A stretch of 64,000 nucleotides of DNA from Minutocellus sp. GHC0000111 (GCA_977018835.1 OZ361256.1:1550001-1614000), one strand, 5' to 3'; positions 23,801-44,169 are shown, numbered from the stretch's first letter. Notes: a model not told the origin generated them from the letters alone. Numbers and translations: made by a program.

Positions 23801-26229
23801 ATGTTGCCCGACAGGTCGAGAATAAGCTTCTGGAAACGGCTCCACGCTGCCGGGACGGTTCCTGTGAACTGATTGTCGCCAAGCATGATGCTCACCTCCT
23901 CATCAGTAACGCTAGAGCCCGACAGGAGGTCCGCAGGGAGGGGTCCCTTGAGACTGTTGGAATTCAAATGAAGCCTCGTTAGCATTTTCATCCCATTCAA
24001 CGATGGCAACGTACCGCCGATGCCACTTCCCGACTTGGACGTTTGATGGATCGACAACTCCACGAGGTTGATAAGCTTGTTGAGCGCGGCGGCGGGAAGC
24101 GTACCGGTGAACTCATTCTCCGAAAGTGCCAGTCGCTTCAGCGAGCCACCAATATTACCAATCTCCACCGGGATCTGCCCGGTAACCGATCCACCGTACA
24201 GATGGAACTCCTGCAGATTTGCGAGCTTTCCGATCTCCGTCGGCAGAGTGCCGGTGAAGGCGTTGTGCGACAGCGACACATACTCCAACGACGCAATGTC
24301 AAAGATTGTCTTGGGAATGGGCCCGCCGATCTTGTTCTGCGATATGCGCAGCTCCTTGAGCGGGAGCTGGCCGATCTCGTCAATGTCATCCGTCGAGGAG
24401 AGGCCGGTATTGGAGATCCACAGATACTGCAGCTTTGTCGCCTCGAAGATGCCCCGGAAGCGGAAGTCGATGGCATTGGCCATGAGGTCGAGCTTGGTCA
24501 GCTCCGGGAGGCGGTAGATGGTCGAGGGCGGAGTACCGGTGAGGCCATTGTTCTTCATGTTGATCGCAACGACGTTGCCAACGCCGTCGCACTCGATTCC
24601 GTACCAGTCGCACCCGTTCCCGTCGCCGGTGGCCCAACCGGTGTGATCGTTCCACGAATCTCCTCCGGTGGCGGCGTAGAACTCCAGCAAGATCTTGGCC
24701 TGGTCGGTGGTGATGCCGTCCGCCCCGCCGGCGCAGTCGGTCTGGCCGAGGTAGGGGGACGACGACGAGGCGCAGGGAACGCAGGGTCCATCCTCGGCCG
24801 TGGCCCGACCGAGGTCGGAGGACGTGCCGATGGGACAGAGGATGGCGTCGCACCCACCGCCGCTGCTGCCGACGTCGCCATCCATCCAATGGGATCGGGT
24901 GCACAGATCGGACGCGATGGAGGTGAACTTGTTGCCGACGAGGTAGATGTTGAGCCGATCAAAGTCCTTGAGGGTGGCGGGGACCTCCCCGGACAGGCCG
25001 TTGTTCTGGAGGTTGACCTTGAGTCCGTCCTGCTTGGGGGCGTAGTAGAGGAAGTTGTCGGGGATGGTCCGCGTCAGCCGTTGGTTCTCGAAGTACACCT
25101 CCTCGACCGACCGGAGGTTGGACAGGTCGGGGAGGGGACCGGTGATGCCCTCCCCCTTGGCCTTGCCGTGGGTGCGCTGGATGGCCAGAATTTCCACCTT
25201 GGTCAGATCGTTGAGGGTTTGGGGCAACGTCCCCCCAAAGGCATTCTGGCTGAGGGCCAGAACGCGCAGATCCGATAGACTGCCAACCTCGTCGGGAATT
25301 TGGCCCGTCAGATCGTTCTCGTACAGGTACAAATGGGTGAGCCGATCGAGCTGCCCAATCTTGCTGGACAACGTACCGGTGAAGCCGGCGTAGTTGAAAT
25401 ACAGCTGCTTGAGGGTGGTGACGTCGTAGATCTCGTCGGGGATCGGACCGCCAAAGTCGCAGTCGGTGATGTGGATCTCCTCAAAGGTCGACGGCACCTT
25501 GGAGATGCCGGCGAGGCTGGTAACGGCGGTGTTGCTCAGGATGAGATTCTCCAAATATTGGGCATTGCCCACGTTGCGAAAGGTCACGTCGACGGACGGG
25601 TTGTCCCGAAGGTTGAGGACCTGGAGGAAGGGCAGGTCCCACACCTCCTCGGGCATGGTTCCCTGGACGTGATTCTCGCTCAGATCGATTTCGCGGACGT
25701 GTCCAATCCGTTCCTCGTCGGGACCGTCGGGATCACTGGATGCGTAGCACGATATGCCCTTCCAGGTGCACACGTCCGAGGAGGTGAACCAATTGGCGTG
25801 GTCGGTCCATTCCAGACCTTCGGTTTCGTCGTATATTTTGAGGAGGACCTCCATGGTGTTGAGGTTGGCGCTGTTGTTGTCGTTGTTACTGGTGCTAGTA
25901 GTGGTGCTGCTCTGGGCCATGGCGGTCGGAGCATTACCAATCAGGCCAAGGAGGCACAAACTCGAGAGAATGAGGAGACTTGCACCAGATGACGATGACG
26001 ACGAAGCACTGAGAGGGGAGGATGTTCGCGCCGATGCCGACGAAGGGGCAGTACCAGCAGCATTGGCCTCATCATTGCAGCCGTCGCATTCCAAAGCCGA
26101 CTCCTCCCTCATGGCATCAATATCGGCATGCTCGTCGACGACATTGCTGCCATGGCAACTCCGCCGAAATCGTGAGCTGCTGCCCTCCGGTCGGTCGTCG
26201 CCACGTGCATTGCCGGTGGCGCCACACAT
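17887..26229 (-). CDS. Giant secreted/membrane-anchored leucine-rich-repeat protein (7 tandem LRR modules); in-frame intron 21529-21678
   Basis: Plant-type LRRs (LxxLxLxxNxLxGxIP), repeated N-caps (FY.ATGG..W....W......C.W.G..C) and Cys-rich C-caps (GCDAILCP.GT...GRQ...C.PC...Y.GS..C). Signal-like hydrophobic stretch ending AMA-Q; C-terminal hydrophobic tail; no kinase domain. AAG|GTAAGC...ATGCAG|AAC intron of 150 nt. Start uncertain. Confidence 0.9.
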   Translation of the reverse strand: MCGATGNARGDDRPEGSSSRFRRSCHGSNVVDEHADIDAMREESALECDGCNDEANAAGTAPSSASARTSSPLSASSSSSSGASLLILSSLCLLGLIGNAPTAMAQSSTTTSTSNNDNNSANLNTMEVLLKIYDETEGLEWTDHANWFTSSDVCTWKGISCYASSDPDGPDEERIGHVREIDLSENHVQGTMPEEVWDLPFLQVLNLRDNPSVDVTFRNVGNAQYLENLILSNTAVTSLAGISKVPSTFEEIHITDCDFGGPIPDEIYDVTTLKQLYFNYAGFTGTLSSKIGQLDRLTHLYLYENDLTGQIPDEVGSLSDLRVLALSQNAFGGTLPQTLNDLTKVEILAIQRTHGKAKGEGITGPLPDLSNLRSVEEVYFENQRLTRTIPDNFLYYAPKQDGLKVNLQNNGLSGEVPATLKDFDRLNIYLVGNKFTSIASDLCTRSHWMDGDVGSSGGGCDAILCPIGTSSDLGRATAEDGPCVPCASSSSPYLGQTDCAGGADGITTDQAKILLEFYAATGGDSWNDHTGWATGDGNGCDWYGIECDGVGNVVAINMKNNGLTGTPPSTIYRLPELTKLDLMANAIDFRFRGIFEATKLQYLWISNTGLSSTDDIDEIGQLPLKELRISQNKIGGPIPKTIFDIASLEYVSLSHNAFTGTLPTEIGKLANLQEFHLYGGSVTGQIPVEIGNIGGSLKRLALSENEFTGTLPAAALNKLINLVELSIHQTSKSGSGIGGTLPSLNGMKMLTRLHLNSNSLKGPLPADLLSGSSVTDEEVSIMLGDNQFTGTVPAAWSRFQKLILDLSGNMITGIGSGLCGMGDWNEKAVASYGCDAILCPVGEYNSNGRQAGGTSTCQSCPSAQYMGSVECGAIADDPTLNGDQKILEEIYYAAGGAQWKNSDGWTTDTDVCNWYGVSCNGSGSVTALDLSENNLEGSIPTSVFRLSALTELDLQSNDIAFSFDEIDQAVSLTTLYLSLTGLESIDGIGRAKNLKVFHSTNNKLSTIPYDLYDVTSLEKVYLNYNNIGGRLSGGIKKLSNLEELYLMHNQLTGQIPSGIGALGNIRVLGLTENNFDGTLPVELENLRTLEVLAIQREGGTDGQTAGGSDVGTNFGSNKNGKGIGGPLLSFKDMPNLKELYLGSNSLTGTIPFDFLNGVEDKDSRQLIVDLVSNQLEGRVPSSLSQFDDMSIYLADNKFEELADGLCNKNDWMKSKVVDFGCDAIMCPPNTYAKHGRQTSSDTVCTRCPVGSTAPFYGSFECINDLAVDSLKERDILAAIYNALRGPQWTLSTNWLNHDVSFCQWHGIECVSGTESVRGIRLPQNDLEGYVPSVIFELPNLEEINVAGNEIAFSFDGIEGAGRLEYLNVDNIGLKSLSGLENAPQLKLLHVVGNNFGGTFPEEVYSLTNLEALYLSDNDIGGRLHSAMAVLTNLVYLQCYECGLDQSIPTWLGSLDSLEYLRLDQNSLHGTIPTEIEGLTKIQHIDLSDQISRGGTGLTGPLPRFANLLDLTELYLFKVSFMARQNQAKLIYYTACYYLSLENRIHLITPFPGQNLSFQPPPPLVSMQNNLSGDIPSDFLFGEYKTHELQVDLRQNKLTGTISSSLAQLSKLSIYLAGNMMTAAIPAQICTMSFARGYGCDGVMCPPGTFNELGRQTSKDNPCQPCDDLDSTQYYGSVQCGMNNEKEILKIFYSELNGPDWDDNDNWEDAGASACKYHGITCTAGTDYVESIVLESNNLVGTVPTEIFNLPNLREIKLKSNDITFNFEGIESAQKLVRLHLSDTGLTSIDGIGKAQSLKYLHLTSNILVNLPDDFFELSNLQDVYLNYNGIQGTLSTKIGKLTNLENLFVFHNRITGEIPTQVEYLTKLKTFAMAENYMSGTIPSELTSLSSLQIIALQREGGETAPGIGGPLEVKTAGEIGAGFTGSIPAFDQMPKLKELYLGANSLSGTIPRDFLNGIQDKSASIKVDLSQNILVGTVPEKLTAFDSLKLYLSDNKLKALPDAFCSKSSWMGGEVATNKCDAIMCPPGTYNEYGRQANDETPCEPCPFTYTAEFYGSIECIPSNTGDYSEREILRLFFQATGGNQWSDKSNWLKDGVSVCQWNGITCAYEEGGAGDTVTRIQLPSNKLRGTVPPAIYQLPNLKTVDVSNNDVGFEFRGIEMARVLDALYLDRTRVSSLDGIGKASRLTTLHVQNNDFKGAPIPSELYDLGNLESLYLSDSNFGGTLSADIKKLDDLQEFYCHGNSLTGTLPPELGTLHNLKVLQLSENLFVGEIPREFDGMESLQSLFIDSYTRNSVGLSGPVPDFNQMEHLTEISLNANSLTGSIPDDFLINLKNKKSSVVIGLQDNQISGTLPQVLSRFSKLNIDVSGNMITKIDESLCALQGWQGGDVASFGCDAILCPAGTFNQYGRRSSNQFPCVPCEGAEQSPYMGSLICESEEKKKEKEILKLFYNVCGGKNWKNNDNWMSDDVDICHWFGISCKDGKTVDSILLGENNVVGTPPAKIFEMTNLKWLWLYSNPINFKFDGIGNAKRLTSLLLDQTGLSSLRGIGAASTIEDLDLRFNNLKGPLPPEISQMINLKDFAVEGNRLTGALPSFDGMKRLERLRLGSNRFAGALQDFTSNKRLKSIDVSGNIMSGPIPSTLLKGTDEDEEIYLDLSSNNFIGEVPGELARFEKMTIYLRDNLITGVNPALCENDEWNDGDVGEFNCDGILCPAGTFSENYGRQTTGGQLTQCVQCDKAKYFGASFCGVRSSAVTTRLGVAIGVVSASIVALAVTLI

Positions 26230-26856
26230 GATATGCTGGCTAGTCTAATTGGCCAGCAGCCCCAACAAGCAGTCAGTTCAAGATGCAAGCGAGTTGATCG
26301 CAAATGCGGAGAGGAGACGTGAGGAGGACCCGCACTCTCTCTCTCTCTGCCGATCACGCCAATGATGTGAGAGGAGCGCAAGTCGTTTGAGCACGCAACA
26401 GTCAACACGCCAAAAACAAGACCGCGCAATATTTTTGGCTCTCGGCAGCAACGTAGGATTTACGTACGGTACGTAGAAAATAACGGTGCCCCCCCCCCTC
26501 GCGTCGCGTTGCGTCGTGACAAAACCGCAAAAGTAAGTTCTGGTTTTTGTATTGTTGTGTGCCGCACTGGGAGATGCGGCGGTACCGACCGACCTTGCTT
26601 CGCTTCACTTGGTGCAACTTTACTAGGCCTAGTACTTCAAACGAGGGACGCGGCGCGACCTGTGAGGTCGAATTGATACTTGCCCCCGCCCCCTGAACTG
26701 GCCGAGAGGTTACGCTCGTTCGGCGCATTCATTGCCCATCTCCTCGCCGCCCAGTGCATGCAGTGTCTTTGTCTGGCTGGCTGGCTGGCTGGTATCTTGA
26801 CATTTTATTTTGAGCCAAAACGCACAAAACACATCAATTGCGAGTATTTCAAGGCA

Positions 26857-30424: not shown

Positions 30425-32430
30425 CTACACCCCAGCAACTTCGCTCCCAGCGCTTACTTTCCTTTCATCCGATCCTTTATTCCCTTGATTGATCTGTATC
30501 AGAACCTTGGCGACAAGATCGGCTGCAACGGTATCATCGTCTGATGCGGTACGCTTTGGTTTGTTCAGTGTCGCTTCCGTTGCCGCAGGAGTATCTCCGC
30601 TCTTCGCAGTCTGCTGGGTTCCAGGGCCTCCATCAAGTCCCTGATCGCCAGGAGGGAGGGGAGGCATCTCCTGATCTTCCGCCACCACACCATCGTCGTC
30701 GTCACTGTCATCTTCATGTCCTTTCCTCGTGGAATCTTTGTGGTCGTTTCTCTCAATATTATCCGCAATATTATTAGTCAGGGTGCCTGCACGTGCGTCC
30801 TTGATCCACTTGCGAGCTTGTCGAAGGCGACGATTCAATTGGTCTCGTCTCTGACGAAGCGAGACACCATTCACATCGACGAAGTGCTTGGAACCTTTTG
30901 AGAGAAGATCTCTTAGAGCGCCAGGAAAGACGAAACCGGCATCACAGAGGGCATCGACGGGGGTAAGGCGGGCGTCGTCCAGGCACGCAAGAACGGCCGA
31001 GTCCATCCTCGGGTCAGGTCGCCGTCCGGATCCTTCCTTGGTCTTGTTGTGCCAGATCTGCTGGTAGATATCCCTGTCAGAGAGATTAGGAAAGGCATCG
31101 GGCCCTGAAGCAGGGGCAGGAAGACCAAACATCAAATCGTTTTGGTCATCAGATAGTCGTCGCTTCTTTTTCTTCTTTCGGTGTGATTTTGTTTTCTTTG
31201 CCGACGATCTCGTCCCCCTGCTTGCAGATGCTGCCATGGCAGGTGAAGAGAGTGAGATTGCAGTGGCAATAGAGGAGGAAGATGGAGAATCAAGCCTGCC
31301 CACGGGTTGTTGTGGCTGTCTCGAGGCCTCCAAGGCCCACCTACCAAGAGTCCACCGATTCATGTCGATATTGATGCTTCCCCCGATTTCCATAGGCAGA
31401 CGATCTCTCGGTAGGCAATAGCCCTGGAGGATGGAGAGGACTTCTTCGATCGATCCGGAGTGCAACTTATGACGCAGTCGAACATTTTGTGGCATCAAAC
31501 GACGAGCTAGAGGGCTGATGAAGTAGTAAATCAGAGCTCTTGGATGGCAGGCATGGACGGCCCTCAGGTGTATGGGCATCGCCACGTCGATGATGGCGGA
31601 ATACTGCTTTGCGAAGGTACCACTGGTGTGCCTCCAATCGGTATTTTGGAGATTAGCAACGACGACAACTCCACGTTGACGAAGGTCGGGAGATTCGATG
31701 ATGGTCTCGAGCAAATACCAGAGGCAACGCATCTCCCTCTGGACTGAATATTCTGCGAAGTTTCTACGGCTAGGCGTGAAGAAAAGCACGGCCCTCCCAG
31801 CGGCATCTGTGACGGGAAGGACCTGCCAGATCCGCCTCGTAGCGATGCTCATCATCTCGTCGCGGACGGCCTGCGACAAGGTCATGGGAAGGTATGCCAA
31901 GTCAGGGCCGAAGACTGAGACGCGCCCTTTCCAGTAGGCGGCCATGCTTTGCGCTGCGTTCTTGGCGTCTCCGTTTTGGTAATCCAGGAAGACGAACTTC
32001 TGTTGGTGGTCGACGGAGGACGGGCACTCTACCACAGCACGGTAGTATTCGGTCGTCGTTCCTTCGGGAAGCTCGGAGATTTCGCGATTGAAGTTGGCAA
32101 TTGCCTCCGGACATCTTGTACTTATACGACCGGTACTGGAGTTATTGGGCTGAGCACCGAAAAAGGAAAGCCCCCCAGGAGTCCACCGCCTGTCGATGAA
32201 GAGAGAAGAGAAGATAGGCCACACAAGTCAGATTGGACGGCCGCCATCTGGTCCGTCGAAAGAGCAGCCAGCTCCCGCTGTTCATCCTCGACGGTGAACG
32301 GATTGGCACAGAAGTTGCGAAGGTCTTCTTCGTGCTGCTGCTCGTCGTTTTCGCCACCCCTTGGTGACGATGTGCCGCGGACAGCAGCGGTAGCACCAAG
32401 AGCTCCTCCTCCTCCCGCAGCGGACGACAT
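30425..32430 (-). CDS. CRAL-TRIO domain protein with C-terminal DPRM domain (paralog 2); 1-nt frameshift in the C6 run at 32171-32176
   Basis: The N-terminal ORF (FTVEDEQRELAALS...SDLCG) aligns with paralog 1 (FTLHDEMRELSKL...SDLHG) and joins the main ORF if the homopolymer is one base longer. DAAGRAVLF, MPIHLRAVH, LPMEIGG. Confidence 0.75.
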
Positions 32431-32499
32431 GGCAAAGAAAATGAGAGAAACAAAATACTACGTTGCTTTGCTTTTGCAAATACTATCCATCGGTCAACT

Positions 32500-32727
32500 T
32501 TGTGGGTACCGCACGGTGGGGATGAGCTGGCGACGGTGGTTAGCAGCAGGCACTAAAACTGCATTCCTGTAGTGCCCAGTTTTTCTGCTGACCACCACCT
32601 TCGCCTCCTCTCGTCTCAACTGACCAAGCCACAACCATCTGCGATTGCTGCCGTTGCAATTGCTAAGTCAGCTTACAGTACCGGCTCCCAGAGCCTGTCT
32701 CTCTCTCTCAGTAGTTAGTTAGTTTTA
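32500..32727 (+). repeat. Terminal repeat A1
   Basis: 228 bp; 1 mismatch to A2 (32508 A vs 40519 G). Confidence 0.95.
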
Positions 32728-32896
32728 GCATTAGGTTGGTGCTACTCTACGAGTTCGTAATTATTGGCCGACACACCACCACTGCTTTTAGTCCAGAGAC
32801 CGCAGTCGACTCCGGACGGAGTCAAACGGCCACGGCTCAGCTCCGTTGATAGTGCACGTAGATCCGATACCAGTCTCTACGACGGCAGAACAGTGC

Positions 32897-34323
32897 ATGG
32901 CCGAACCAGATCGACCGGAACTGGATCACTTGTTGTTCGGAGTGGCAAGAGACCTCATCGTCCGAGGAGACTCTCCTGACCTTCCACGAGGCTGGGACAG
33001 ACTCAGACGTCAGATTCGGCCCGGGCGCAGAAGTTTCTTCACAGCCAGGGCGTCGTCCGAGAGACTGACCACAGACGCACTGGATTGGTGGAAAAGTTTT
33101 GCCGAGGGCCGAATCGACGTTACCGAGTACCTCACCGATCTCGTCGAGCGCGCCACAGGCTACCTCCCATCGAGAGCCACGGGGCACCAGCCATCCCCAG
33201 CAGCAGCCGTTTCACACCTTACTCCAGTAGCGCACGGTCTGGTCGCCGAGTACCTCGAGCAACAAGCCTTCTTGGTGTCACCGGACTGGCCCACGTGCCT
33301 CGTCAACATCTGGCTGATAGCCACGCGCCTTGCCGAGAGCCTGAGATCCGCCGGGCACACGAGACGGCAACTGAGTTGGACCTGAGCAGTGCACTGCACC
33401 GACTACCACGGGCAGACGGAGGCGTCGTGGTTCAACAGCATCGGGGGCGAAGGTGTCCGGAGGCATCGGTAGCAGCAGCGCGGCAACACCATTGCATCTG
33501 GCCCCAGCTCTGCCGGCTCACGCAGTGCATCCTCCACTACCAGGCCGACCGAAAAGAAAGACGGCGCATCGCGGCCAGAGAGGGCAGACCTCTAGAGCCG
33601 ACACCGTGCGCTTGCATAGGTTCACGGGGGAGCGAGCTTCCACCAACGCTGCCGCTCACTTATTTCGAGTGGGAGGTAAGGCCACTCTTCTACCCACGTG
33701 ACGCACACGACCGAACCGAGCGGGCTGGCGTCAGTGTGGCATTGGAGCGAGGAGATCTCATCGGCCCTTTCGCCCTGATCACCCAGTTCCCGCTGGATTC
33801 GCCGTACCCGTTCCAGAGACGGCAGTGCCTACGACCGGACCAACTCACTGAAGCTATTATCAACTGGGACAGTGGATTCGAGAGCCTCACCAGCGCTCGA
33901 CTCCGACACACTCGGCCTGACAGCAATCCTCTTGGACACCGAGTGGAGGTCAACCCGTACGAACACTGGGGAAGGCTGGCAGACCTAACGGCGTCCCCCT
34001 CACACCGCTGGGCAGGCACCTACCATCGAGTCTATCCGAGGTGGCTAGACGATGCGGCCGATCCAAATCGCTGGGAGGGCACCCACTACCGCGTCTGGCC
34101 AAGAGCATCAATTCACCGGCGCCCCGACGATCTCGAGGCACCTGTCCGCCTGCGAGATATCACCGCCGACATTTTGGTGTCAGAGCCACCGCGTCAGGCA
34201 TTCAACATCCTTCTATCCGCCTTTGGAGAGCCCGACATCGCCGACCGCATCCTCACCCTCACGGCCGATCTGAACCACATCCAGCGCCGAGAGGACCGAC
34301 GCCGAAGGCGACAGGCAAGGTGA
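32897..34323 (+). CDS. Extra retrotransposon ORF0, unknown function; frameshift near 33356-33360
   Basis: The ATG 32897 frame (MAEPDRPEL...) and the 33085-34323 frame join at GGGCACACGAG. Ends 16 nt before the gag ATG. Internal repeat HRWAGTYHRVYPR / NRWEGTHYRVWPR. Confidence 0.55.
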
Positions 34324-34339
34324 TCGAGCATTGATCACC

Positions 34340-36391
34340 ATGGCTTCATCTTTCAACACCTGGAAGTCAGTCCTACTGGCACAAGAGATGCCGGCCGGGC
34401 CCGACGCCGCCGTAGCTCGAGATTTCCAGAGATTCCTCGCCGACAACGTCTGTGAAACCGACCCCACGGCCGCTGTGGTCCAGAGCCATGCCCGAGCGAT
34501 CCAGCAGCAAATCCGCGACGCCGAGGGTTTGTTCATGCTGGCCCACCATCCAGAAGGGAAAGTCGTGGTGATTCACCATGCCGTGGCTCAGGGAGGCACC
34601 ACCATGCAGCCCGACCTCAGGTTGGGTGGGCTCCTCGGGATCGACGATGTAGCCCCGGCAATGTCGTTGGCCCAACCTAGCCTCTTGCGGCACAAGGAGG
34701 TCCTAGCCCCATCGGTGGAAGCCATGCTGGGGGCACCGTCAGAAGCCGCCCTAACCGGTCTCACCCAGGAAGGCTCCAACACCCGCCACCGGAGTGCCTC
34801 CACGAAGTTTAAGTCCCTTGTGCTGCTGCCACCTTCGATTCTGCAGAATGTTCTGGAAGAGCACGAGGCATCGCCTTGGGCCATCCTGTCCGCCATCAAA
34901 CGTCGGCTGGATGAGGACGCCGGCAGCGACGACGCATCAGACAGCGGTGACGACGAGGGTCATGGCGCAGCAGGTCTTCGCTCCAATGAGGCTATTCAAC
35001 ACGTCGTCAAGTGGCTGTGGTTCGTCGCCACGTCCGAGCAAGGTGACATCCCGGCCGTCAGCTTGTACCCAATGACGGACCCGGCTCTCAAGACATGCGC
35101 CCGTGAGATGCACGCTCGGTGCATCACTGGCGCCAGTGGCGACGGACCACCAGCCGGTGGCGCCCCGACCGACTCTGCAGTTGCTGCCGCGGCCAACGCC
35201 ATGACTAGGGCCGCGTCCGAAGCATCCTCCCTCACCGGCGCAGTCATGGCCTACACTGACAAGGTCGACAAGAAGCACTCGATGAATGGCGCCATCCTCA
35301 AGGCCTGTGCCGCTTTCTGCCGGGTCTCGACCGAGCATGACGATGATGTAGCAGCGATCGACTCGAATCTTCCCGAAGGATTGAAAGCACTGCTGGAAGA
35401 GTCAAACCTCACGCAAGCAGCCGTCGGCCTCGAGCTGCATGTAAAGGGCAAGACCGGAGTCAGGACATCTCTCCAGGGCCTCACCACTTACGTCCGCCTC
35501 TTTGGCTTCGGGAAGAGCGACAAGAAAATCTACGATGGCTTCTCTGTCTTCGCCATTAGCCCGGCAAACTCCAGCAGCAGCAATGCGCCCCTGCACCTCG
35601 CCGCCTCTCAAAAGAAAGGATATACCTCGACTCAGGTGAAGGCTCTTCTGAAGCAGAACTACCGGTCCCCAACCGAGTGCGACGGTGCCAAACGTCACAT
35701 CTCGGCCTTCGGCGCTGGCATTTCCTTCCTTGCCGGAGAGGATTCCGAGCCCGCTCGCTGCGTCGCCAGGGTCCTCAGTCACATAAAGACACACGAGGAC
35801 CAGCACCGCGACATCGCCGAGAGCCATGGCGAGAAGTTCTGGCTGGCGATGTTCCACAATGTCGACGCCTCCATCCATGCATTCTGGAAAGCTTGTCTCC
35901 GTTCCCCCGACGACGCCGGCAACGACCTCTCTTGCTTCTCAATGGCCGACGAGTCCAAAATGACAATGAAGACTCAGAATCCTTTCGTCTACCCCAGCCA
36001 CATCAAGCTCGTCCAATCGGCCGACGCTCCCACCCCTTCCTCGGATTCCGACTCCGACAAATCAGAGCCAAGAACCAGTCCGAAAAAGAAGCAAAAGACG
36101 GGCGGCGCCAGCGGCAGAGCCCACCAGTGCGAACACTTCGTCACGTTCGATGTCAACCCCGGCAACTTTGCAAAACGGCATGGCAAGAAATCCGAGCCCT
36201 GTGAGGACAGACCTGAAATTAATGGCTGTAAATTCTGCCCTCCATTCATCCTGACAGGTGTCTGCGGCGCCGGATCCTCGTGCAAGCTCAAGAAGTCGCA
36301 TGTCAAGAGGCCTCTCAAGGCATCGGAGAGAGGACCCGTCGAGCAGCACGTCGAGAAATGCGATCGGAAGTACGAGGAGGCGGAGGAATGA
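34340..36391 (+). CDS. gag: Gag-like ORF with C-terminal CCCH-like zinc finger
   Basis: 683-aa ORF upstream of RT. C-terminal CPPFILTGVCGAGSSCKLKKSH. Ends in TGA-CGG. Confidence 0.75.
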   Translation: MASSFNTWKSVLLAQEMPAGPDAAVARDFQRFLADNVCETDPTAAVVQSHARAIQQQIRDAEGLFMLAHHPEGKVVVIHHAVAQGGTTMQPDLRLGGLLGIDDVAPAMSLAQPSLLRHKEVLAPSVEAMLGAPSEAALTGLTQEGSNTRHRSASTKFKSLVLLPPSILQNVLEEHEASPWAILSAIKRRLDEDAGSDDASDSGDDEGHGAAGLRSNEAIQHVVKWLWFVATSEQGDIPAVSLYPMTDPALKTCAREMHARCITGASGDGPPAGGAPTDSAVAAAANAMTRAASEASSLTGAVMAYTDKVDKKHSMNGAILKACAAFCRVSTEHDDDVAAIDSNLPEGLKALLEESNLTQAAVGLELHVKGKTGVRTSLQGLTTYVRLFGFGKSDKKIYDGFSVFAISPANSSSSNAPLHLAASQKKGYTSTQVKALLKQNYRSPTECDGAKRHISAFGAGISFLAGEDSEPARCVARVLSHIKTHEDQHRDIAESHGEKFWLAMFHNVDASIHAFWKACLRSPDDAGNDLSCFSMADESKMTMKTQNPFVYPSHIKLVQSADAPTPSSDSDSDKSEPRTSPKKKQKTGGASGRAHQCEHFVTFDVNPGNFAKRHGKKSEPCEDRPEINGCKFCPPFILTGVCGAGSSCKLKKSHVKRPLKASERGPVEQHVEKCDRKYEEAEE

Positions 36392-36424
36392 CGGATCGGG
36401 TGGGCACGGAGGCGTGGCCCACCC
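36389..36424 (+). promoter_or_regulatory. Putative stop-codon readthrough signal (UGA-CGG plus 3' stem-loop)
   Basis: TGA 36389-91, then CGG, then GGGTGGGC (36398-36405) pairing with GCCCACCC (36417-36424). The frame stays open for 167 codons after the stop. Confidence 0.6.
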
Positions 36425-36995
36425 TCGGAGGATGCTGGAGAAACATCTCGGCCAGCCGGCCGAGCTCGTCCCTCCAAGCACCGTCGAGTGCAGCCAGATG
36501 CGTCGGCGTCGATCCGCCCCGGTGGCTCCAGCCGCCCAAGGTTATCCGGCACCCCAAAATCCGGCGTGTGCGGTCGCAACGACATCAGCAACCAATCCAG
36601 GCTCTCCGGTGCCCCTAACACCGGAGCAGAAGGCCGAGGCGTTAGCAGTGACCTTCGGTCGGGTCCTGGTCCCCCTAACACCAGCGGTGATGCCTGCGCC
36701 GACAACAGCATCTCAGGCTCTGGCTCCAGCACCACTGACGCTGGCGGTGCGGAAGCCACCGACAACCTCTTCGACCGGCTAGGCCAGCGAGAGAAGGATC
36801 TCCTAGGTAAGCAGGCCCAACCCGAAGCACAGTCTCCCCCTGGTTCCCCTACGCACAGCAAGGAAGTAGAACCGACACGCCAAAGTGGTAAGTGAGACCA
36901 ACAGGTGAGGAAACACCTACAACAAACGGGGCAGCCCAGCGCCCACAATGGGCCCACCACGGTCGGACAGACCCGCATGCTCGTGAACGTGCAGC

Positions 36996-39578
36996 ATGCA
37001 CATATCTCACCTTTTTCTCGCCTCATGCAATTCCACGTGGGAACTAGAGCCCATCTTCGATGTTTCCACCTTGGTGCAGTGCGTCCGACGAGCAGTCGAG
37101 TCCCCGTCGGCCACACCGAAGCCCACGGAGTTCAGATTTGAGCTCTTGACGGAGGCCGCCGCTCACAATTGGTCGGTCCTCAAGAAACACGATCGCTCTC
37201 TGAGCAGGGCACTCGAGGCGCAGGGCGGGTCGCCACTCCAACCGGGATCGGAGTTCAGAGACCTGAGTCTTCTGGAGCCGATTCTTGGCCGGCACCCGCT
37301 GTGGCCCCGCTTCCGCTCCATTCTCGACAGTGGATCCGACTGGGCCCTCGATCCGGTGAGCGACGAAAGCAGACTGGACAGCGTGATAAAGAACATCGGC
37401 CGAGGCAACCACAAATCGGCCAGGGATAGGCCGGAGGTACTCAAGGACCAAGTTCTCGACGACGTGACCCGCGGTTTCGCCCTCCCTCTGCCAGCAAAGG
37501 TCGCGCCCCTCATTCCTGGAGCGGAGGTGGCTCCGATGGGTTTGGTAGCACAGAACACGATCAGCGAGGCTGGCGAGATCATGCCCAAGGACCGCCTGAC
37601 TCACGACCAATCCTTCGAGATCGGCACCGCACGGTCCGTCAACAACAGAGTGCGCATGGAGGACCACCAGCCAGTGGTGTTCGGCCATGCCCTCCGGCGA
37701 GTGATCCACCACATCGCAGACGCCCGTCACAAGCATCCCCGCACTCCCATCCTCCTGCAGAAGGTCGATTTCAAGGCTGCGTGTCGCCGGGCCCACTTGG
37801 CTCCCAGCACGGCCGTCAAAACGATCACCACCCTGGATGGCATTGCCCTCATGTCCCTCCGGCTGACTTTCGGCGGCCGCCCTTGCCCGGGCGAATGGTG
37901 CAACATGTCCGAATCGGCGGCCGACCTGGCCAGGGCCCTCCTGCAATGCTCGGACTGGGACCCGTCAGAGCTCCACAGCCCCCAGCAGAAGCACTTGGGC
38001 CGCCCCAAGGTGGAGGGCGACGATGTGCCGTTCGCGCCGGCCCTGGACATGATCGTGACCCTTCCCGACAACAAGGATGGCATCGTCGAGCCGTACATCG
38101 ATGACCTCATCGCCGCAGCCCCTGACCTGGGCGACAACAAGGATCGGATGTCCGCTGCCACCCTCCTCGCCATCCACGCGCTTGGCCGACCGGTGTCCAA
38201 TAGCGAGCCACTGCCCAGAGATGACCTTGCCTCCATCAAGAAGCTGCTCGCCGAGGGGACGCCTTCCGAAGTGCTGTGTCTCTTGGGGTGGGATGCTGAT
38301 GCCCGGCGGCTCCTGCTGAGGCTCCCTTGGAGCAAGCACCTGGCCTGGCGCGATGACATACTTCGGCTCCTCAGAGCCCGCGGCGCCACCAGATCAGAGC
38401 TGGACACCTTGGTCGGAAGGCTAAACCACGTCGGATGCATCATTGTTCCAGCCGCACGACACTTCTTCAGCCGCCTTCGGGATCGGCTCTGGAAGGCCCG
38501 CCGCCACGGCCGCCAACGGTTCGACTCTGAGGATGCAGAAGACCTCAACCTATGGCTCCGCTTCCTCCGAAGGGCCGCCGATGGCATGAGCATGAACCTC
38601 CTCACGCACCGTTGCCCCACCCACGAGCACATAAGTGACGCCTGCGAGCACGGCATCGGCGGATGGTCCTCATCCGGCAGAGCGTGGAGATTTGCCCTCC
38701 CCGAGGAGCCATGGGACCGGTTCACCCTCAATTTCCTGGAATTCCTCGCCGCCCCATGGATCGACCACATCGAGGGCAACCTACCAACCCTCTCCTGCGC
38801 ACTGTCGGGGACCGACAGCACCACGGCCGAGGGATGGCTCAGGAAGTCAAACTTCGTGTCTCACGGCGAGAAGGATGCCGACGTAGCGGTCAAGCTGGCC
38901 ACGGCGCGGAAACTAGCCGACATGCTCATCGAGACCAACACCATGCTGTGCTCACAGTGGTTCCAGGGGAAGCGCAATCCGGAGGCCGATTCTCTTTCTC
39001 GTGATGCCGATCTCTCTGATGCTGACCTCATGAAATTGCTTCTATCATCTCCCGAATGTCAGCTTCCCTCAAATTTCAGGATTGCACCACTGCCCAACGA
39101 GATTACTTCCTGGATTGTCTCGCAGGCGCGGACGCTGCCCGTCAGGAAGCAGTTACAACGGCCACTGCCGAGAAGCACGCTCTCGCGTGGAGCCGCTGGA
39201 CTGAGTTCCTGCAGCTCATCGGGACCGGGGACGACGTCTTCCTCGACAAGGTATCACCCCGAGACCGAACAGTCATTCTCGGCGCCTTTGCCCACGCCGT
39301 CCGACAGGCCAGCTTTTCGGGGCCAAAGTTTTCGCGACTGGCTGCGTCGACAGTCCGAGATGCCGTCTCATGTGCATGCGCGTCCTTCCGGCACAACCAG
39401 CGCAGGGACCCAGGGAAAGACGACATCGGCCAGCCTTCATTCCTTCTACAGCGGCAGTTCCGAGGACACAGCCAGTCCGACCCGGCCGAGCGGCCGGAGA
39501 AGGCGATCACCTGCCGGCTCCTCCGAGAGATCGCCTCCGTCAGGGAAACGGAAGAGGACCGTGCAGTCGGGCAACTAG
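36996..39578 (+). CDS. pol: Reverse transcriptase + RNase H (pol) of the YR retrotransposon
   Basis: RT motifs KDRLTHDQS, KVDFKAA.RR, LRLTFGG..CP, YIDD (38094-38105), LLGW. RNase H motifs SDAC..GIGG, NFLEFLA, TDSTTA, GKRNPEADSLSR. Confidence 0.92.
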   Translation: MHISHLFLASCNSTWELEPIFDVSTLVQCVRRAVESPSATPKPTEFRFELLTEAAAHNWSVLKKHDRSLSRALEAQGGSPLQPGSEFRDLSLLEPILGRHPLWPRFRSILDSGSDWALDPVSDESRLDSVIKNIGRGNHKSARDRPEVLKDQVLDDVTRGFALPLPAKVAPLIPGAEVAPMGLVAQNTISEAGEIMPKDRLTHDQSFEIGTARSVNNRVRMEDHQPVVFGHALRRVIHHIADARHKHPRTPILLQKVDFKAACRRAHLAPSTAVKTITTLDGIALMSLRLTFGGRPCPGEWCNMSESAADLARALLQCSDWDPSELHSPQQKHLGRPKVEGDDVPFAPALDMIVTLPDNKDGIVEPYIDDLIAAAPDLGDNKDRMSAATLLAIHALGRPVSNSEPLPRDDLASIKKLLAEGTPSEVLCLLGWDADARRLLLRLPWSKHLAWRDDILRLLRARGATRSELDTLVGRLNHVGCIIVPAARHFFSRLRDRLWKARRHGRQRFDSEDAEDLNLWLRFLRRAADGMSMNLLTHRCPTHEHISDACEHGIGGWSSSGRAWRFALPEEPWDRFTLNFLEFLAAPWIDHIEGNLPTLSCALSGTDSTTAEGWLRKSNFVSHGEKDADVAVKLATARKLADMLIETNTMLCSQWFQGKRNPEADSLSRDADLSDADLMKLLLSSPECQLPSNFRIAPLPNEITSWIVSQARTLPVRKQLQRPLPRSTLSRGAAGLSSCSSSGPGTTSSSTRYHPETEQSFSAPLPTPSDRPAFRGQSFRDWLRRQSEMPSHVHARPSGTTSAGTQGKTTSASLHSFYSGSSEDTASPTRPSGRRRRSPAGSSERSPPSGKRKRTVQSGN

Positions 39579-40432
39579 CCGTCGGCGCCTTCTTCTTCGC
39601 GATGAGGTCTTGCGAACACTCCAGAGTCAGCGGTGAGCGCAGGACCAAGCTGCTCCGCCTCCGCAATATCCAGTTCTACCGCGGCCGACGGCGCATGTGT
39701 CACAACGACCGGTCCCTCCTCTCAGCAGACTCTGTCTCCGTCACCTTTGAGTTCCAGAAGCACGACGAGCGTGACGTCACGATTGCGCAACACTGCACCC
39801 ACGACGCCACCCTCTGCCCAGTTCGAGCTTGGGCTGCCCTGGTGAAACGAGTCCTAGGGTGCCCTAGTACCAACAGCGATGCGCCGGTAAATGCCTTCGT
39901 GGTCAACGGCGTATTAAAATACATTCCTGCCACCCGAATAGTTGACAAGATCCGAGCGTCGGCCACAGTGATTGGAGAGGACGTCCTGGGCTGCCATCCC
40001 TCTGAATTCGGATCACACTCCATTCGCAGCGGAGCAGCAATGGCAATGTGTCTAAATGATGTTCCCACGCACACAATCATGCTGGTAGGGCGGTGGTCCA
40101 GTGACGCCTTCCTCAAGTACATCCGTCGCCAGGTCCAAGAATTTACATCCGGAGTCTCCACACGCATGATCCAACGAGGTTCCTTCTTCAACGTGCCCCA
40201 CGCACACACTCGACGAGCCATCGCGAAGACCCAAGGACCCCAAATTGCCGCCAATCCTTCGCCGGCATCAACAGTATTGGCCGAAATGCCGGCTTCGGGA
40301 CTCCAATGCCCCCCTTCGCCCTGTTCATTTAAGCACGACACACATTGTTGGCCGATCTGTGCTGCGGAAAGGAGGAGGGGGAGAGGGACCTCACCCCCTC
40401 TAAGAAGTTTCAGCTCCAGTTCACGTAGTTAA
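39056..40432 (+). CDS. Tyrosine recombinase (phage-integrase family) overlapping the pol 3' end
   Basis: FFFAMRSCE (R), FQK, LCPVRAW, HSIRSGAA (H-x-x-R at 40016), GRWSSDAFLKY (catalytic Y at 40118-40120). The true C-terminus possibly shifts frame near 40205 and ends at TAA 40332. Confidence 0.92.
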   Translation: MSASLKFQDCTTAQRDYFLDCLAGADAARQEAVTTATAEKHALAWSRWTEFLQLIGTGDDVFLDKVSPRDRTVILGAFAHAVRQASFSGPKFSRLAASTVRDAVSCACASFRHNQRRDPGKDDIGQPSFLLQRQFRGHSQSDPAERPEKAITCRLLREIASVRETEEDRAVGQLAVGAFFFAMRSCEHSRVSGERRTKLLRLRNIQFYRGRRRMCHNDRSLLSADSVSVTFEFQKHDERDVTIAQHCTHDATLCPVRAWAALVKRVLGCPSTNSDAPVNAFVVNGVLKYIPATRIVDKIRASATVIGEDVLGCHPSEFGSHSIRSGAAMAMCLNDVPTHTIMLVGRWSSDAFLKYIRRQVQEFTSGVSTRMIQRGSFFNVPHAHTRRAIAKTQGPQIAANPSPASTVLAEMPASGLQCPPSPCSFKHDTHCWPICAAERRRGRGTSPPLRSFSSSSRS

Positions 40433-40510
40433 ACTGCATTTCATGTTCTACTAAGTTGCATAGAGTTGGGAGAATCAGCGGAGGGAGGCACTGTGTTCGA
40501 TGTGTCATCG
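40411..40510 (+). repeat. Repeat B1
   Basis: 100 bp; 3 mismatches to B2; directly abuts A2. Confidence 0.95.
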
Positions 40511-40738
40511 TTGTGGGTGCCGCACGGTGGGGATGAGCTGGCGACGGTGGTTAGCAGCAGGCACTAAAACTGCATTCCTGTAGTGCCCAGTTTTTCTGCT
40601 GACCACCACCTTCGCCTCCTCTCGTCTCAACTGACCAAGCCACAACCATCTGCGATTGCTGCCGTTGCAATTGCTAAGTCAGCTTACAGTACCGGCTCCC
40701 AGAGCCTGTCTCTCTCTCTCAGTAGTTAGTTAGTTTTA
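40511..40738 (+). repeat. Repeat A2
   Basis: Direct repeat of 32500-32727. Confidence 0.95.
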
Positions 40739-40813
40739 AATTCCCTCAAACCCGTCTAAGAAGTTTCATTTACCGCCCCTCACCCTCTAAGAAGTTTCAT
40801 TTACCGCCAATGC

Positions 40814-40913
40814 CAGCTCCAGTTCACGTAGTTAAACTGCATTTCATGTTCTACTAAGTTGCATAGAGTTGGGAGAATCAGCGGAGGGAGGTACTGTGTT
40901 CGATGCATCATCG
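40814..40913 (+). repeat. Repeat B2 (element 3' end)
   Basis: Direct repeat of 40411-40510. Confidence 0.95.
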
Positions 40914-41556: not shown

Positions 41557-43943
41557 CTACCAAATATCAACTCGTTTCTCCTTGGCCTTGTACATGGCAG
41601 AGTCCTCGGAAATATTGAACGCCTGGATGAATTCTTCAATGTTGCTGAGAGGCCCGTTGCAACGCATCTCATTCGGCCCATGTGGATCAAGGGTGATGAG
41701 CTGGAGAGACCTCTCCTTTGTGATGTTCTGACGCCAGGCTTGGCTCCACGAGAGGAAAAAACGTTGTGTAGGAGTGAATCCATCGATCTTCTTTGTATCA
41801 TCAACGTCTGGCTGAGAGATGAGAGCTCTGTATGCCAAGCGGAGTCCACCTAGGTCCGCGATGTTTTCACCACAAGTAAGTTTGCCCTTGACCTTTTGGC
41901 CGTGCACCTCGAATTCGCTGGCCTGCTCGACCATCACCTCGACGCGTTTCTCGTATTCTTCTCCGTCCTCCTTCGACCACCAATCCTTCATGTTGCCCTC
42001 CCAATTGAACTTTCGTCCCTTGTCATCGAAACCATGGGTCATTTCATGGCCAGTCACGGCACCAATGGCACCGTAGTTGACAGCATCATCGGCGTTCGGG
42101 TTGAAGAAAGGAGGCTGAAGGATGGCCGCGGGGAATACTGCCGCATATTGTAAAGGACGGGGCGAGGGAAATCAGACAATGATGTGATATTTCACAATAA
42201 TAATAATAACAACAACAGAGGCGGGATATTTCTTGCGTGCAGGCGGCAGACGGCAGGAGCACACAAACCGTGAAATACAGCCTCCATTTATTTGTACCGC
42301 CCAAAATAAAACATAAAATTAAAAACAGTGGTTTTGCCCAAGGAAATCACGCTTAACAACCAAAACAACTTACCAATCTCGTTCAGCGATGGGTGATAGT
42401 AGGCATTGATCGTCTGGGGCGTCATGAACCATTTTTCTCGGTCCGTTGGCGCATTCATCTCCTCCACATCTCGCATGTGATCGAAGACCTTGGCCTTGAC
42501 GACCATGGCCAGGAACGAATCGCCCTCCTCAATTTTCAGGGAGGTGTAATCAATCCACTTGTCGGGATAGCCAATCTTCACACGGAAGCGACTCATCTTC
42601 TTCAGAGCCTCCTCTCTGGTGGCGTCCGATGTCATCCAGTCCACTTCCTTGAGGCGATCTTCGAGCGCCTGACGGACCGTCTCGACGATCTGGAGGGCCT
42701 GGCTCTTGCTGGACTCGTCAAAGTACTTGGCGCAGTACAGCTTGCCCAGCACCTCGCCCAATGCCGACTCGGTGAAGGCCATGGCGCGCTTCCACCGAGG
42801 CTTGATCTCGGCGGTACCCGCCAATTCCTTCTCGTAGAAGTTGAAATCGGCGTCCACGAATGGTTTGCTCAGGTACGCCGCAAATTTGTTCACCGCATGC
42901 CACCGCAGATACTGATGCAGAACATCCCTGTCGGCGGAGGCAACGACCTCGACCATCTTTTCAATGGCCTTGGTATTGCGCACGTTGATTTTGCCCAACT
43001 CGTCAGCCGACTTGGCACCACCGGTGGCCGCCGCAAAGTACGACGCAAAGTCAAATCCTCCACAGTCGCCACCATCACCACCGCCACCGCTCCGCTCCGT
43101 CAGCTCCGATATGGTCATGGGATTGTACGTGGCGTTCGGGTCGCGATTCTCCGTCTTGGTCATGTGCGCCTCGGCCAGCTGCGCCTCCAGCTGGTAGATG
43201 GATTCGGCGGCCGCCACGTTGGCCTCGGTGGGTTCTGCCGCCTTGGCATCGTCCAACAGAGTCAGCATGAGGGCCACGTGCTTCTTGTACGCCGCGCGTT
43301 TGTCTTCCTTGTCGTCGTCGAAATAGTAGTCCCGATCGGGCAGACCCAGCCCGCCCTGATACACCTGGCAGAGGCTGTGGTCGGAGTTGGTGTTGTCGGG
43401 CGATGCGCCGATGGCAAAGAAGGACGCCATGCCAAATTGGGACAGGAGCTGACCGATGCTGGTGGCGAGAGGAGTAGTACTCGTAGTATCATTGTTCCCA
43501 TTGGCGGCAGCATCGGCAGCAGTCGCGGCGCACAGATCCAGCAGCGGCTGGAGGCGGGCAATCCCCGCCTCTTCGATGGCCTCCTCGTCCATGGCGGCGG
43601 CGTAGAATCGGGCCACCTTGGCCTCATCTTCGGTCAGTGTCGTCGTCTCCTTACCATCGCCAGCATCAACAGTCTGATTGCGACTCTCCAAATCCTTGAG
43701 CATGGCCTGCAGACGTTCCTGACTCTGGACGTGGAGCATCAAGAACGAATTCCATGACGGATATCCGGTAGGTATGGGATTGTTTTTGATCCAACCACCG
43801 TTGGAATACAGATAAAAGTTATCGGAGGGTTTCACGGATGGATCCATGTTGGACGGATCGAGTCCTGGGATCTTGAGGGGCTTCTGTTCGTCGTTGTCGT
43901 TGGTTTTGGTTTCATCGCACATGGCGCAGAGCTGGGAGAACAT
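41557..43943 (-). CDS. M13 zinc metallopeptidase (neprilysin/ECE/PepO family); intron 42138-42373
   Basis: PSDNFYLYSNGGW, GGLGLPDRDYY, KIGYPDKW, INAYYHPSLNEI|VFPAAILQPPFF, HEMTHGFDD (HExxH), GENIADLGG, DPHGPNEMRCN. Splicing restores the frame. Confidence 0.93.
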
Positions 43944-44169
43944 GTCGGCCGTCCCCTTGGACCAGGGGTTGTTGCAGCACGGACATTTGGTGTCGTCGTC
44001 GCCGCCCCCCGAGGCGGCAGCAGCATCGTTGGAGGTAATGATGGCGGAGCGGAGAGGCGGGTCGAGCGAGCGTTCTAAAACACCTCATTTCGAAATTGCA
44101 CGTCATGTGCCATTTTGCGTCGTATCTTCCGGCCACTTCCGCTCGCTCCATCCATAGCACACCGGCAAG

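Follow-up and report, generated by a model that had tools for sequence, protein, structure and literature searches.

TpA-erasing hypermutation of a multicopy Ngaro-type retrotransposon in the diatom Minutocellus sp. GHC0000111

The 8.4-kb retrotransposon at positions 32500-40913 of the window, the 64,000-nucleotide stretch of Minutocellus sp. GHC0000111 DNA analysed here (GCA_977018835.1 OZ361256.1:1550001-1614000), raises the question of whether TpA dinucleotides in mobile DNA are being rewritten as TpG and CpA. A first-pass annotation proposed such a process from the differences between the element's own repeats and the scarcity of its tyrosine codons. Comparison of the element with its sister copies, with outgroups and with host genes confirms that TpA-erasing hypermutation is real and is far stronger than the window by itself suggests.

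The element is assigned to the Ngaro type from its split direct repeats (layout A1-ORFs-B1A2B2), a reverse transcriptase (RT) fold and a tyrosine recombinase (YR) (Table 1). The structure model of the pol product (pLDDT 85) matches the RTs of MMLV, foamy virus, CaMV and Ty3 in Foldseek (E 7e-9 to 5e-7), and these fold matches, together with the YxDD motif, indicate a predicted RT/RNase H ORF of which the RNase H part is putative. PDB sequence searches returned no RT match, the RT being seen only by fold search. The YR carries an HSIR sequence (HxxR) and an invariant Tyr, and two of its homologs, P0016 and P0007, match PF00589 under its cut-off (E 4e-4 and 0.04). A Pfam search with the four element ORFs gave no match, as was the case at E 0.1 for seven of nine proteins. 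The 683-aa ORF differs from its one sister protein at 17 of 472 sites, M/T, H/C, Y/H and V/A pairs included. Similar to the present element, the Ngaro element of Cafeteria burkhardae (PMC8547959) has an A1-[ORFs]-B1A2B2 layout, an RT/RNase H and a YR with HxxR and a catalytic Tyr; the present element differs in its 8.4-kb length and additional 5' ORF, and hypermutation is unmentioned in the portion of the C. burkhardae account covered.

Table 1. Features of the retrotransposon, in window coordinates
Feature	Position	Strand	Remarks
Terminal repeat A1	32500..32727	+	retains TA at 32507-32508
ORF0	32897..34323	+	~517 aa in sisters; split over two frames in window copy; moderately hypermutated
683-aa ORF	34340..36391	+	gag-like from position alone; 8 Tyr
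pol ORF	36996..39578	+	860 aa from Met; RT fold with putative RNase H region; 3 Tyr
Near-saturated core	37000..39650	.	RTAY kept in 5/324 observations over copies (12 sites)
Tyr of RT YxDD motif	38094..38096	+	present in window copy
YR ORF	39056..40432	+	458 aa from Met; overlaps pol 3' end; HxxR present
Invariant, presumed catalytic YR Tyr	40118..40120	+	present in window copy
Repeat B1	40411..40510	+	CA at 40489-90, TG at 40503-4; 5' extension without 16 nt found in B2
Repeat A2	40511..40738	+	TG at 40518-9
Tandem duplication	40752-40808		31 nt; upstream of B2
Repeat B2	40814..40913	+	TA at 40892-3, CA at 40906-7

The features of the window that first pointed to TpA loss carry little of the argument. 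A1 and A2 differ by a single substitution, TA versus TG, and B1 and B2 differ by CA versus TA and by TG versus CA. The proposal that every difference between repeats fits one ancestral TpA applies to these substitutions; it does not extend to the indels of 16 nt and 2 nt that also separate the 5' extensions of B1 and B2. An ancestral CpG accounts for the TG/CA pair as well as an ancestral TpA does, and a random transition would be TA-compatible at 85 of the 328 repeat positions (p ~0.07 for the two single changes). The repeat differences by themselves are weak evidence for TA ancestry. The Tyr counts originally given (3 in pol, 4 in the 458 residues of YR and 11 in the 313 of the first host gene) are all correct, and as host ORFs range from 5/518 up to 11/313, the first host gene is a favourable comparator. 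Similarly, the raw TpA observed/expected (o/e) ratio of the whole element, 0.43, lies inside the host range of 0.32-0.91 per kb, whereas only the pol core (0.20) and the o/e of the RTAY tetranucleotide (0.30 in the element versus 0.81 elsewhere in the window) do discriminate. Neither the Tyr counts nor the raw TpA o/e ratio was accepted as a sufficient test.

Copy-by-copy comparison is more informative. Sister copies, presumably from one assembly, were compared as proteins, which hides silent sites and leaves codons to be inferred, and all counts are drawn from assembled sequence and predicted proteins. Sisters were defined by at least 40 aligned sites and less than 8% difference (59 pol and 37 YR proteins); the set omits the window's own pol (P0270), two proteins treated as outgroups (P0002 and P0252) and four near-duplicates, and the ORF0 comparison omits the window's own ORF0 (P0463). 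Sites were skipped where a gap lay within four residues or where the 12 flanking residues included fewer than 9 identical ones, and three clusters were represented by 15 of 31, 15 of 33 and 15 of 20 of their members. Two YR proteins from short contigs, P0241 and P0248, were kept and contribute a few retained Tyr at the 3' end. The family is multicopy, with 41 sisters represented at one codon and dozens of copies altered, and the sister proteins are rich in frameshifts. Because their non-recurrent variants comprise 153 singletons and 13 doubletons, the sister copies fit a star phylogeny.

Sister copies have His or Cys at positions held by Tyr in relatives from other diatoms. The 19 codons with ancestral Tyr show 389 changes among sister copies, of which 387 are TA>CA or TA>TG; the 476 sister residues are 200 His, 187 Cys, 87 Tyr and two others, with no Arg. 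ORF0 provides a replicate in which 18 Tyr codons yield 95 Tyr, 52 Cys and 49 His (n = 196), and all 101 changes are TA-type transitions. A single ancestral TA accounts for 50 of 56 recurrent polymorphic codons; 19 of these sites fit TA only and one fits CG only. Against a background of 0.0005-0.004 per possible change, TA changes at ~0.4 per strand. The TA-state residue predominates among outgroups at the altered sites, and at all 19 Tyr sites the outgroups either favour it or are uninformative, Arg reaching at most 5%. The proposed direction, from TA to CA or TG, is thus borne out, as is the contrast with fungal RIP: with TA as the outgroup state, a CpA>TpA direction is not encountered.

Cys or His had been noted in nine motifs where relatives were expected to have Tyr, and this holds for eight of them. 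Among ~110 non-sister homologs, Tyr is found at 82% for KAACRR, 78% for LCSQW, 99% for RSCEH, 89% for AMCL, 83% for RGHS, 79% for LGCP and 43% for LTHR, and the Tyr of VGCII has the support of P0127 and P0128 only, which are the closest outgroups. The exception is KHP, in which His is already present in P0127, P0128 and P0130.

Both strands are affected. At 24 three-state sites (n = 609), 123 observations keep TA, 252 have CA and 234 have TG, and neighbouring changes agree in strand in 400 of 850 cases compared with a null of 405 +/- 12, such that strand coordination is absent along copies. The best context given in the first-pass annotation, RTAY on both strands, also stood: 470 of 1055 5'R-TA observations are changed versus 16 of 163 for 5'Y-TA, a rule that can be written T-A-Y (= R-T-A) and that ORF0 replicates (97/306 versus 4/86, with 0 of 69 CTA/TTA Leu codons changed). 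The restriction to TpA is not absolute. Minor T>C changes occur outside TA in RTY contexts at 0.001-0.017 per copy (RT[C/T], 22/6106, versus YT[C/T], 2/6555). Read on the A strand, the order is TA >> AA > GA, with TA at ~0.45 and AA at 0.007-0.017 (a more than 20-fold difference); A-A-Y and G-A-Y are weakly affected and T-A-R is mostly spared.

Most RTAY sites are changed in the copies, and the load is highest in the RT/RNase H core and declines toward both ends of the element. RTAY is kept in 37/110 observations in ORF0, 1.5% in the pol core and 40/122 in the 3' part of YR, or ~33% at the ends; in the same 23 copies, with P0241 and P0248 excluded, the values are 1/56 versus 17/80. Copies also vary in load (p = 0.004). 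In every one of 41 sister proteins, the Tyr of the RT YxDD motif is replaced by His or Cys, and 9 of 16 sisters show such a replacement at the presumed catalytic Tyr of YR; the window copy keeps both residues.

Host genes are spared, as had been proposed. Of 1282 amino-acid differences that separate the element from its sisters, 924 are TA-compatible. The figure for host genes set against alleles or orthologs is 62 of 411, in a control of four genes under purifying selection that keep 221 of 234 Tyr. Fisher's test gives p 6e-96, a value that is overstated as copies and sites are non-independent. DNA comparisons outside the family are less pointed. Two outgroups, L001 and L002, have 76% and 70% identity, and TA is labile in both directions; in the poorly polarised test of the window against L001, TA is kept in 5/29 in each direction and TG/CA changes number 17 versus 10. 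Related elements at 44 metagenome loci have TpA o/e values of 0.34-0.79, none near the value of the window's pol core, although these are whole contigs, probably of collapsed or active copies. Any His or Cys at five conserved Tyr columns occurs in 7 of 107 YR and 5 of 110 pol non-sister homologs, only two of which have two such residues; a spread of the signature to other diatoms was not shown among these proteins.

The reading that we favour, and hold to be slightly better than an even chance, is that a host activity deaminates adenine at T-A-Y in silenced mobile DNA after insertion and so erases TA on both strands. A candidate enzyme, for which the leading guess would be a deaminase of the TadA/ADAT fold, would act on chromosomal DNA, with changes probably accruing singly across many divisions. 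Replication would read inosine as G and leave TG where the strand itself was edited and CA where the opposite strand was; CG would never form because either product destroys the target. Targeting likely tracks a domain of chromatin or silencing whose density peaks mid-element, and the trigger may, by analogy with Bigelowiella natans, whose main target is single-copy, be foreign or silenced status rather than the repetition originally proposed. The outcome would be defence, on the assumption that the process is not a by-product: the changes recode conserved Tyr, Ile and Val positions, and the ORFs remain open because TA>CA/TG cannot create a stop codon. From sequence, A-to-G and T-to-C chemistry are indistinguishable, and adenine deamination and thymine modification would both fit.

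Gap filling at silenced repeats by a Y-family polymerase of the Pol eta/iota type, with G misinserted opposite T at TA, is an unlikely alternative. Pol iota prefers G opposite T, and repair patches would account for changes on both strands and for the domain-like gradient; however, Pol eta also yields many A/T transversions, the Tyr-codon changes are transitions in all but two cases, and patches should cluster by strand, which is not seen. Somatic hypermutation has a WA hot spot (PMC6423074) that the order of A-strand contexts resembles, but the more than 20-fold excess of TA over AA counts against the polymerase. Similarly unlikely is a covalent modification of TpA steps in silenced DNA, either of thymine to an oxidised form such as 5-hydroxymethyluracil or 5-formyluracil or of adenine, that mispairs or decays in the way that 5mCpG becomes TpG. 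Other protists carry modified thymines, TpA is palindromic like CpG, the context is equally readable as R-T-A on the T strand, and the centre-high gradient resembles a modification domain. In addition, diatom transposons bear silencing 5mC (PMC9998398), and mild CpG decay is present in the element. Near saturation of the core with other divergence below 0.5%, however, suggests a fast, regulated enzyme, and on/off behaviour among B. natans lines (10.64898/2026.01.13.699255) points the same way over passive decay.

We regard as very improbable that retrotransposition intermediates were edited, by ADAR-like A-to-I conversion of RNA or deamination of single-stranded cDNA, and the changes fixed on insertion. 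A retroelement target and the unequal load among copies would fit, but CA and TG are interleaved within copies at chance concordance, A1/A2 and B1/B2 differ inside one copy, and ADAR favours a 3' G, which is disfavoured in the element; a 5' U preference of ADAR, in its favour, is cited in the discussion of the B. natans paper (10.64898/2026.01.13.699255). Equally improbable is an assembly artefact, in which long reads are systematically miscalled where transposon DNA carries a modified base. Frequent frameshifts in sister proteins are compatible with it, as is the retention of Tyr at outgroup-conserved sites in P0002, P0252, P0241 and P0248, which are close proteins from short contigs. It would nonetheless require ~98% miscalls in the core; strand-dependent miscalls would be coordinated by local read-strand balance, of which there is no sign; P0002 and P0252 differ at non-TA sites also (7.7-9.3% overall) and look like a separate lineage; and the B. 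natans spectrum was called from Illumina reads (10.64898/2026.01.13.699255). The least probable explanation invokes ordinary causes, namely 5mCpG decay, RIP-like CA>TA change, or the codon or GC bias of a GC-rich element. CpG ancestry formally fits 31 of the 56 recurrent sites, the whole-element TpA o/e is unexceptional, and C>T at CpG does occur (36/8109, or 0.0044, versus 17/16558 elsewhere). The earlier argument that abundant CpG speaks against 5mC decay is therefore too strong in that some decay exists, and sound in that this decay is too feeble and has the wrong ancestry for the pattern. The changes are also nonsynonymous and strike invariant residues, sites fitting only TA far outnumber the one fitting only CG, and ordinary causes are refuted by outgroup polarisation, Arg being rare in outgroups at the 19 Tyr sites and absent from the copies.

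The signature itself is not categorically new. Mettrop et al. (bioRxiv 10.64898/2026.01.13.699255) described TpA>CpA/TpG hypermutation in the unrelated alga B. natans, where the affected DNA consists of NCLDV and virophage insertions, mutations arose de novo in lines, the process is ongoing and line-specific with a de novo rate raised ~1000-fold, and adenine deamination is proposed. The earlier statement that no mechanism is characterised thus needs amending as to the signature and holds as to the enzyme, which is not proven there either. The two cases share near-pure TpA>TpG/CpA transitions on both strands of foreign DNA only. They differ in host (a diatom, and thus a stramenopile, versus a rhizarian), in target (a multicopy YR retrotransposon polarised copy by copy versus integrated viral inserts) and in record (accumulated changes versus de novo mutations). 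In B. natans, TE-type Pfams are enriched among TpA-poor genes, an extension to transposons by composition only. The T-A-Y rule and the centre-to-edge gradient are seen in the present element; the words diatom, trinucleotide, purine and stramenopile are absent from the main text of the preprint. A literature search that left subscription papers mostly outside its reach showed the signature reported neither for diatoms nor for any family of retrotransposons. As for enzymes, engineered TadA8e gives 94% A>G/T>C among genomic off-targets with TA preferred (PMC13225742), a purity and preference like those observed here, but it is engineered and untargeted. In contrast, amphioxus ADAT2, a natural DNA-editing enzyme, prefers GAA/TCG over TA, and hairpins (PMC10354150), which counts against an adenine deaminase.

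Similar to the present process, fungal RIP makes dinucleotide-specific transitions on both strands of transposons, spares host genes and kills elements by point mutation. RIP depends on a homology trigger, sexual-stage timing and methyltransferase-like enzymes. Together with APOBEC, it establishes C>T chemistry as a means of defending genomes by mutation. The RIP change, CpA>TpA, creates stop codons; the process described here runs in the opposite direction and cannot. Genome defence by A:T>G:C change has so far been put forward in one preprint, for viral inserts of one alga, and the present case carries TpA hypermutation into a second branch of the supergroup and onto a family of retrotransposons in which motif tyrosines of the RT and the recombinase are removed in most copies. 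A broader reading, possible but on balance doubtful, is that diatoms possess a natural adenine editor of their own chromosomes, guided by chromatin, that deaminates T-A-Y in silenced transposons until the motif is exhausted, and that this editor is an old SAR defence shared with Rhizaria and a mirror image of RIP with different chemistry. Such a natural DNA adenine editor, if real, would be relevant to the base-editing field, and the T-A-Y fingerprint (with weak A-A-Y) and spatial profile can be tested against enzymes and chromatin marks in genetically tractable diatoms. Because the process leaves ORFs open and raises GC, dead elements resemble genes, and transposon ages estimated from copy divergence would come out too high.

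The retrotransposon at 32500–40913 was compared with its relatives by protein searches, which returned about 110 distant homologs each for its pol and tyrosine recombinase (YR) products, plus dozens of sister copies. The sisters are 92–99% identical to the element at well-aligned sites; nearly all of them sit on long ENA contigs, several on one that equals the window's contig in length, and, we infer, they belong to one assembly. DNA-level outgroups, 70–76% identical, polarise the changes poorly. Columns that hold Tyr in the distant homologs hold His in some sisters and Cys in others. The direction of change is thus TA to CA or TG, as the first-pass annotation had proposed, and opposite in sense to RIP, a system of similar working whose defining direction is not that of the element. 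Among 56 recurrent codons (second allele in at least three copies), one ancestral TA accounts for 50, 19 by TA only and 31 by TA or CG; of the others, three involve a tandem TATA or a window-private change, one is compatible with CG alone, and two with neither. Across 19 codons whose ancestral residue is Tyr, the sisters carry 200 His, 187 Cys, 87 Tyr, one Phe, one Gln, and no Arg, a composition that indicates near-pure transitions and, by the absence of Arg, excludes CpG ancestry. Ile, Thr, and Met triplets behave in the same way, and ORF0, an independent set from 13 sisters, replicates the pattern (95 Tyr, 52 Cys, 49 His).

The remaining variation is scarce and largely private (153 singletons, 13 doubletons). 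Against a background of 43/89271 transversions, 17/16558 non-CpG C>T changes, and 36/8109 CpG C>T changes, TA steps are changed roughly 100- to 800-fold above other sites, superimposed on mild CpG decay. The earlier argument against 5mC decay has to admit this CpG component, which is much too weak, and of the wrong ancestry, to account for the changes. The TpA hypermutation of the element copies, originally claimed from the window sequence alone, is real.

Both strands are affected, as had been supposed: the three-state tally in the sisters is 252 CA, 234 TG, and 123 kept. The T of TA is changed in 470/1055 cases after a 5′ purine versus 16/163 after a 5′ pyrimidine (97/306 versus 4/86 in ORF0), a rule that reads T-A-Y on the A strand and is weakly visible at non-TA sites (22/6106 versus 2/6555). 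In the window DNA, the favored context named at first pass, RTAY, has an observed/expected ratio of 0.30 in the element versus 0.81 outside, and YTAR is not depleted (0.54 versus 0.28). RTAY counts recover immediately beyond both element ends. A depletion of TpA relative to host sequence is not found over the whole element, where the ratio of 0.43 lies within the host range. Other early observations were accurate but are weak evidence alone. The three differences between repeats A1/A2 and B1/B2 are as described, with one pair equally compatible with CpG ancestry and a chance of about 0.07 for the other two; the Tyr counts are correct, with host Tyr density running from 1.0 to 3.5%. Eight of the nine motifs named at first pass have an ancestral Tyr, KHP being the one that does not.

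Of the RTAY observations, 37/110 are kept in ORF0 (32900–34340), 5/324 in 37000–39650, and 40/122 over the final 550 bases of YR (39650–40200); the unevenness also appears inside the same 23 copies (1/56 versus 17/80). The load comes close to saturating the RT/RNase H core and is about one third lower toward both ends, a gradient absent from the first-pass annotation. None of 41 sisters retains the Tyr of the RT YxDD motif, and 9/16 have lost that of the recombinase. The window copy keeps both, with other conserved Tyr lost and ORF0 broken. Four closely related proteins on short contigs (P0002, P0252, P0241, and P0248; ~90–98% identical) keep the outgroup-conserved Tyr at covered sites; they may be active copies or may come from a related population free of load. 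When four host genes are set against their alleles and close orthologs, Tyr is kept in 221/234 cases and 62/411 differences are TA-compatible, versus 924/1282 in the element, an imperfect control because host genes are under selection. Three host genes (8671–10314, 42363–43985, and 55588–57141) each have a counterpart on another contig of similar length, 92–98% identical at well-aligned sites, which suggests that the same assembly contains a second haplotype or strain that is rather divergent.

The closest known case is the de novo TpA>TpG/CpA hypermutation of two viral inserts in Bigelowiella natans described by Mettrop et al., who propose adenine deamination (bioRxiv 10.64898/2026.01.13.699255). 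Spectrum, action on both strands, and confinement are the same as in the element; the host lineage and the target class, viral inserts versus a retrotransposon, differ. Their main text mentions neither diatoms nor trinucleotide context, although flanks may sit in their tables, and our literature searches listed no account of the TpA>CpA/TpG signature in diatoms or on a retrotransposon.

As to mechanism, chances are about even that a putative host enzyme deaminates adenine in T-A-Y of chromosomal copies, repeatedly and independently, inside a silenced domain. Genomic off-targets of engineered TadA share the transition purity and TA preference of the element spectrum (PMC13225742). Amphioxus ADAT2, a natural DNA editor, favors GAA and TCG rather than TA, which counts against this reading (PMC10354150). 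DNMT5-dependent methylation, present on diatom transposable elements (PMC9998398; PMC12344493), might provide a targeting platform for such an enzyme. The trigger may be repetition, as supposed at first pass, or foreign, silenced status. An error-prone polymerase acting at WA (PMC6423074) is an unlikely source of the changes, and a mutagenic base mark on TpA is improbable to much the same degree.

Neighboring changes within a copy fall on the same strand in 400/850 cases versus 405 expected by chance. This absence of strand coordination speaks against editing of the RNA, one-pass editing of cDNA, and miscalls linked to strand. Editing of retrotransposition intermediates has very little probability, and a read artefact just as little. 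Ordinary decay or bias is the least credible of all.

The arrangement of split direct repeats in the element is the defining one of Ngaro retrotransposons (PMC8547959).

Split direct repeats of the element (window positions)
Repeat	Position	Type
A1	32500-32727	split direct repeat
B1	40411-40510	split direct repeat
A2	40511-40738	split direct repeat
B2	40814-40913	split direct repeat

Repeat B reaches further 5′ than first delimited (40390–40411, 40752–40813). B2 contains 16 nt that are missing from B1 and through which the reading frame of the sister protein P0001 seems to continue; a tandem duplication of 31 nt is present between A2 and B2. The broken ORF0 at the 5′ side is followed by a 683-aa ORF, an 860-aa pol, and, overlapping pol, a tyrosine recombinase that has HxxR and the invariant Tyr. 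The C terminus of the 683-aa ORF carries a Cys/His-rich stretch (36220–36305), which we take to resemble a CCCH-type zinc finger. The predicted pol model (pLDDT 85) has structural matches to the reverse transcriptases of retroviruses, CaMV, and Ty3. Among the listed relatives of pol and of the flanking M13 peptidase, all named taxa are diatoms. Related YR elements at four metagenome loci (L030, L015, L016, and L042) are strongly CpG-depleted (observed/expected 0.19–0.42), and the whole L030 locus is also low in TpA (0.34) and high in CpA/TpG (1.52). A minus-strand CRAL-TRIO gene, its Tyr codons kept, lies head to head with the element, which begins ~70 bases upstream of its probable start codon (32430–32500). 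Farther away, an LRR-like ORF of ~2,800 codons (17887–26244, minus strand) has a predicted signal and membrane end, judged by eye.
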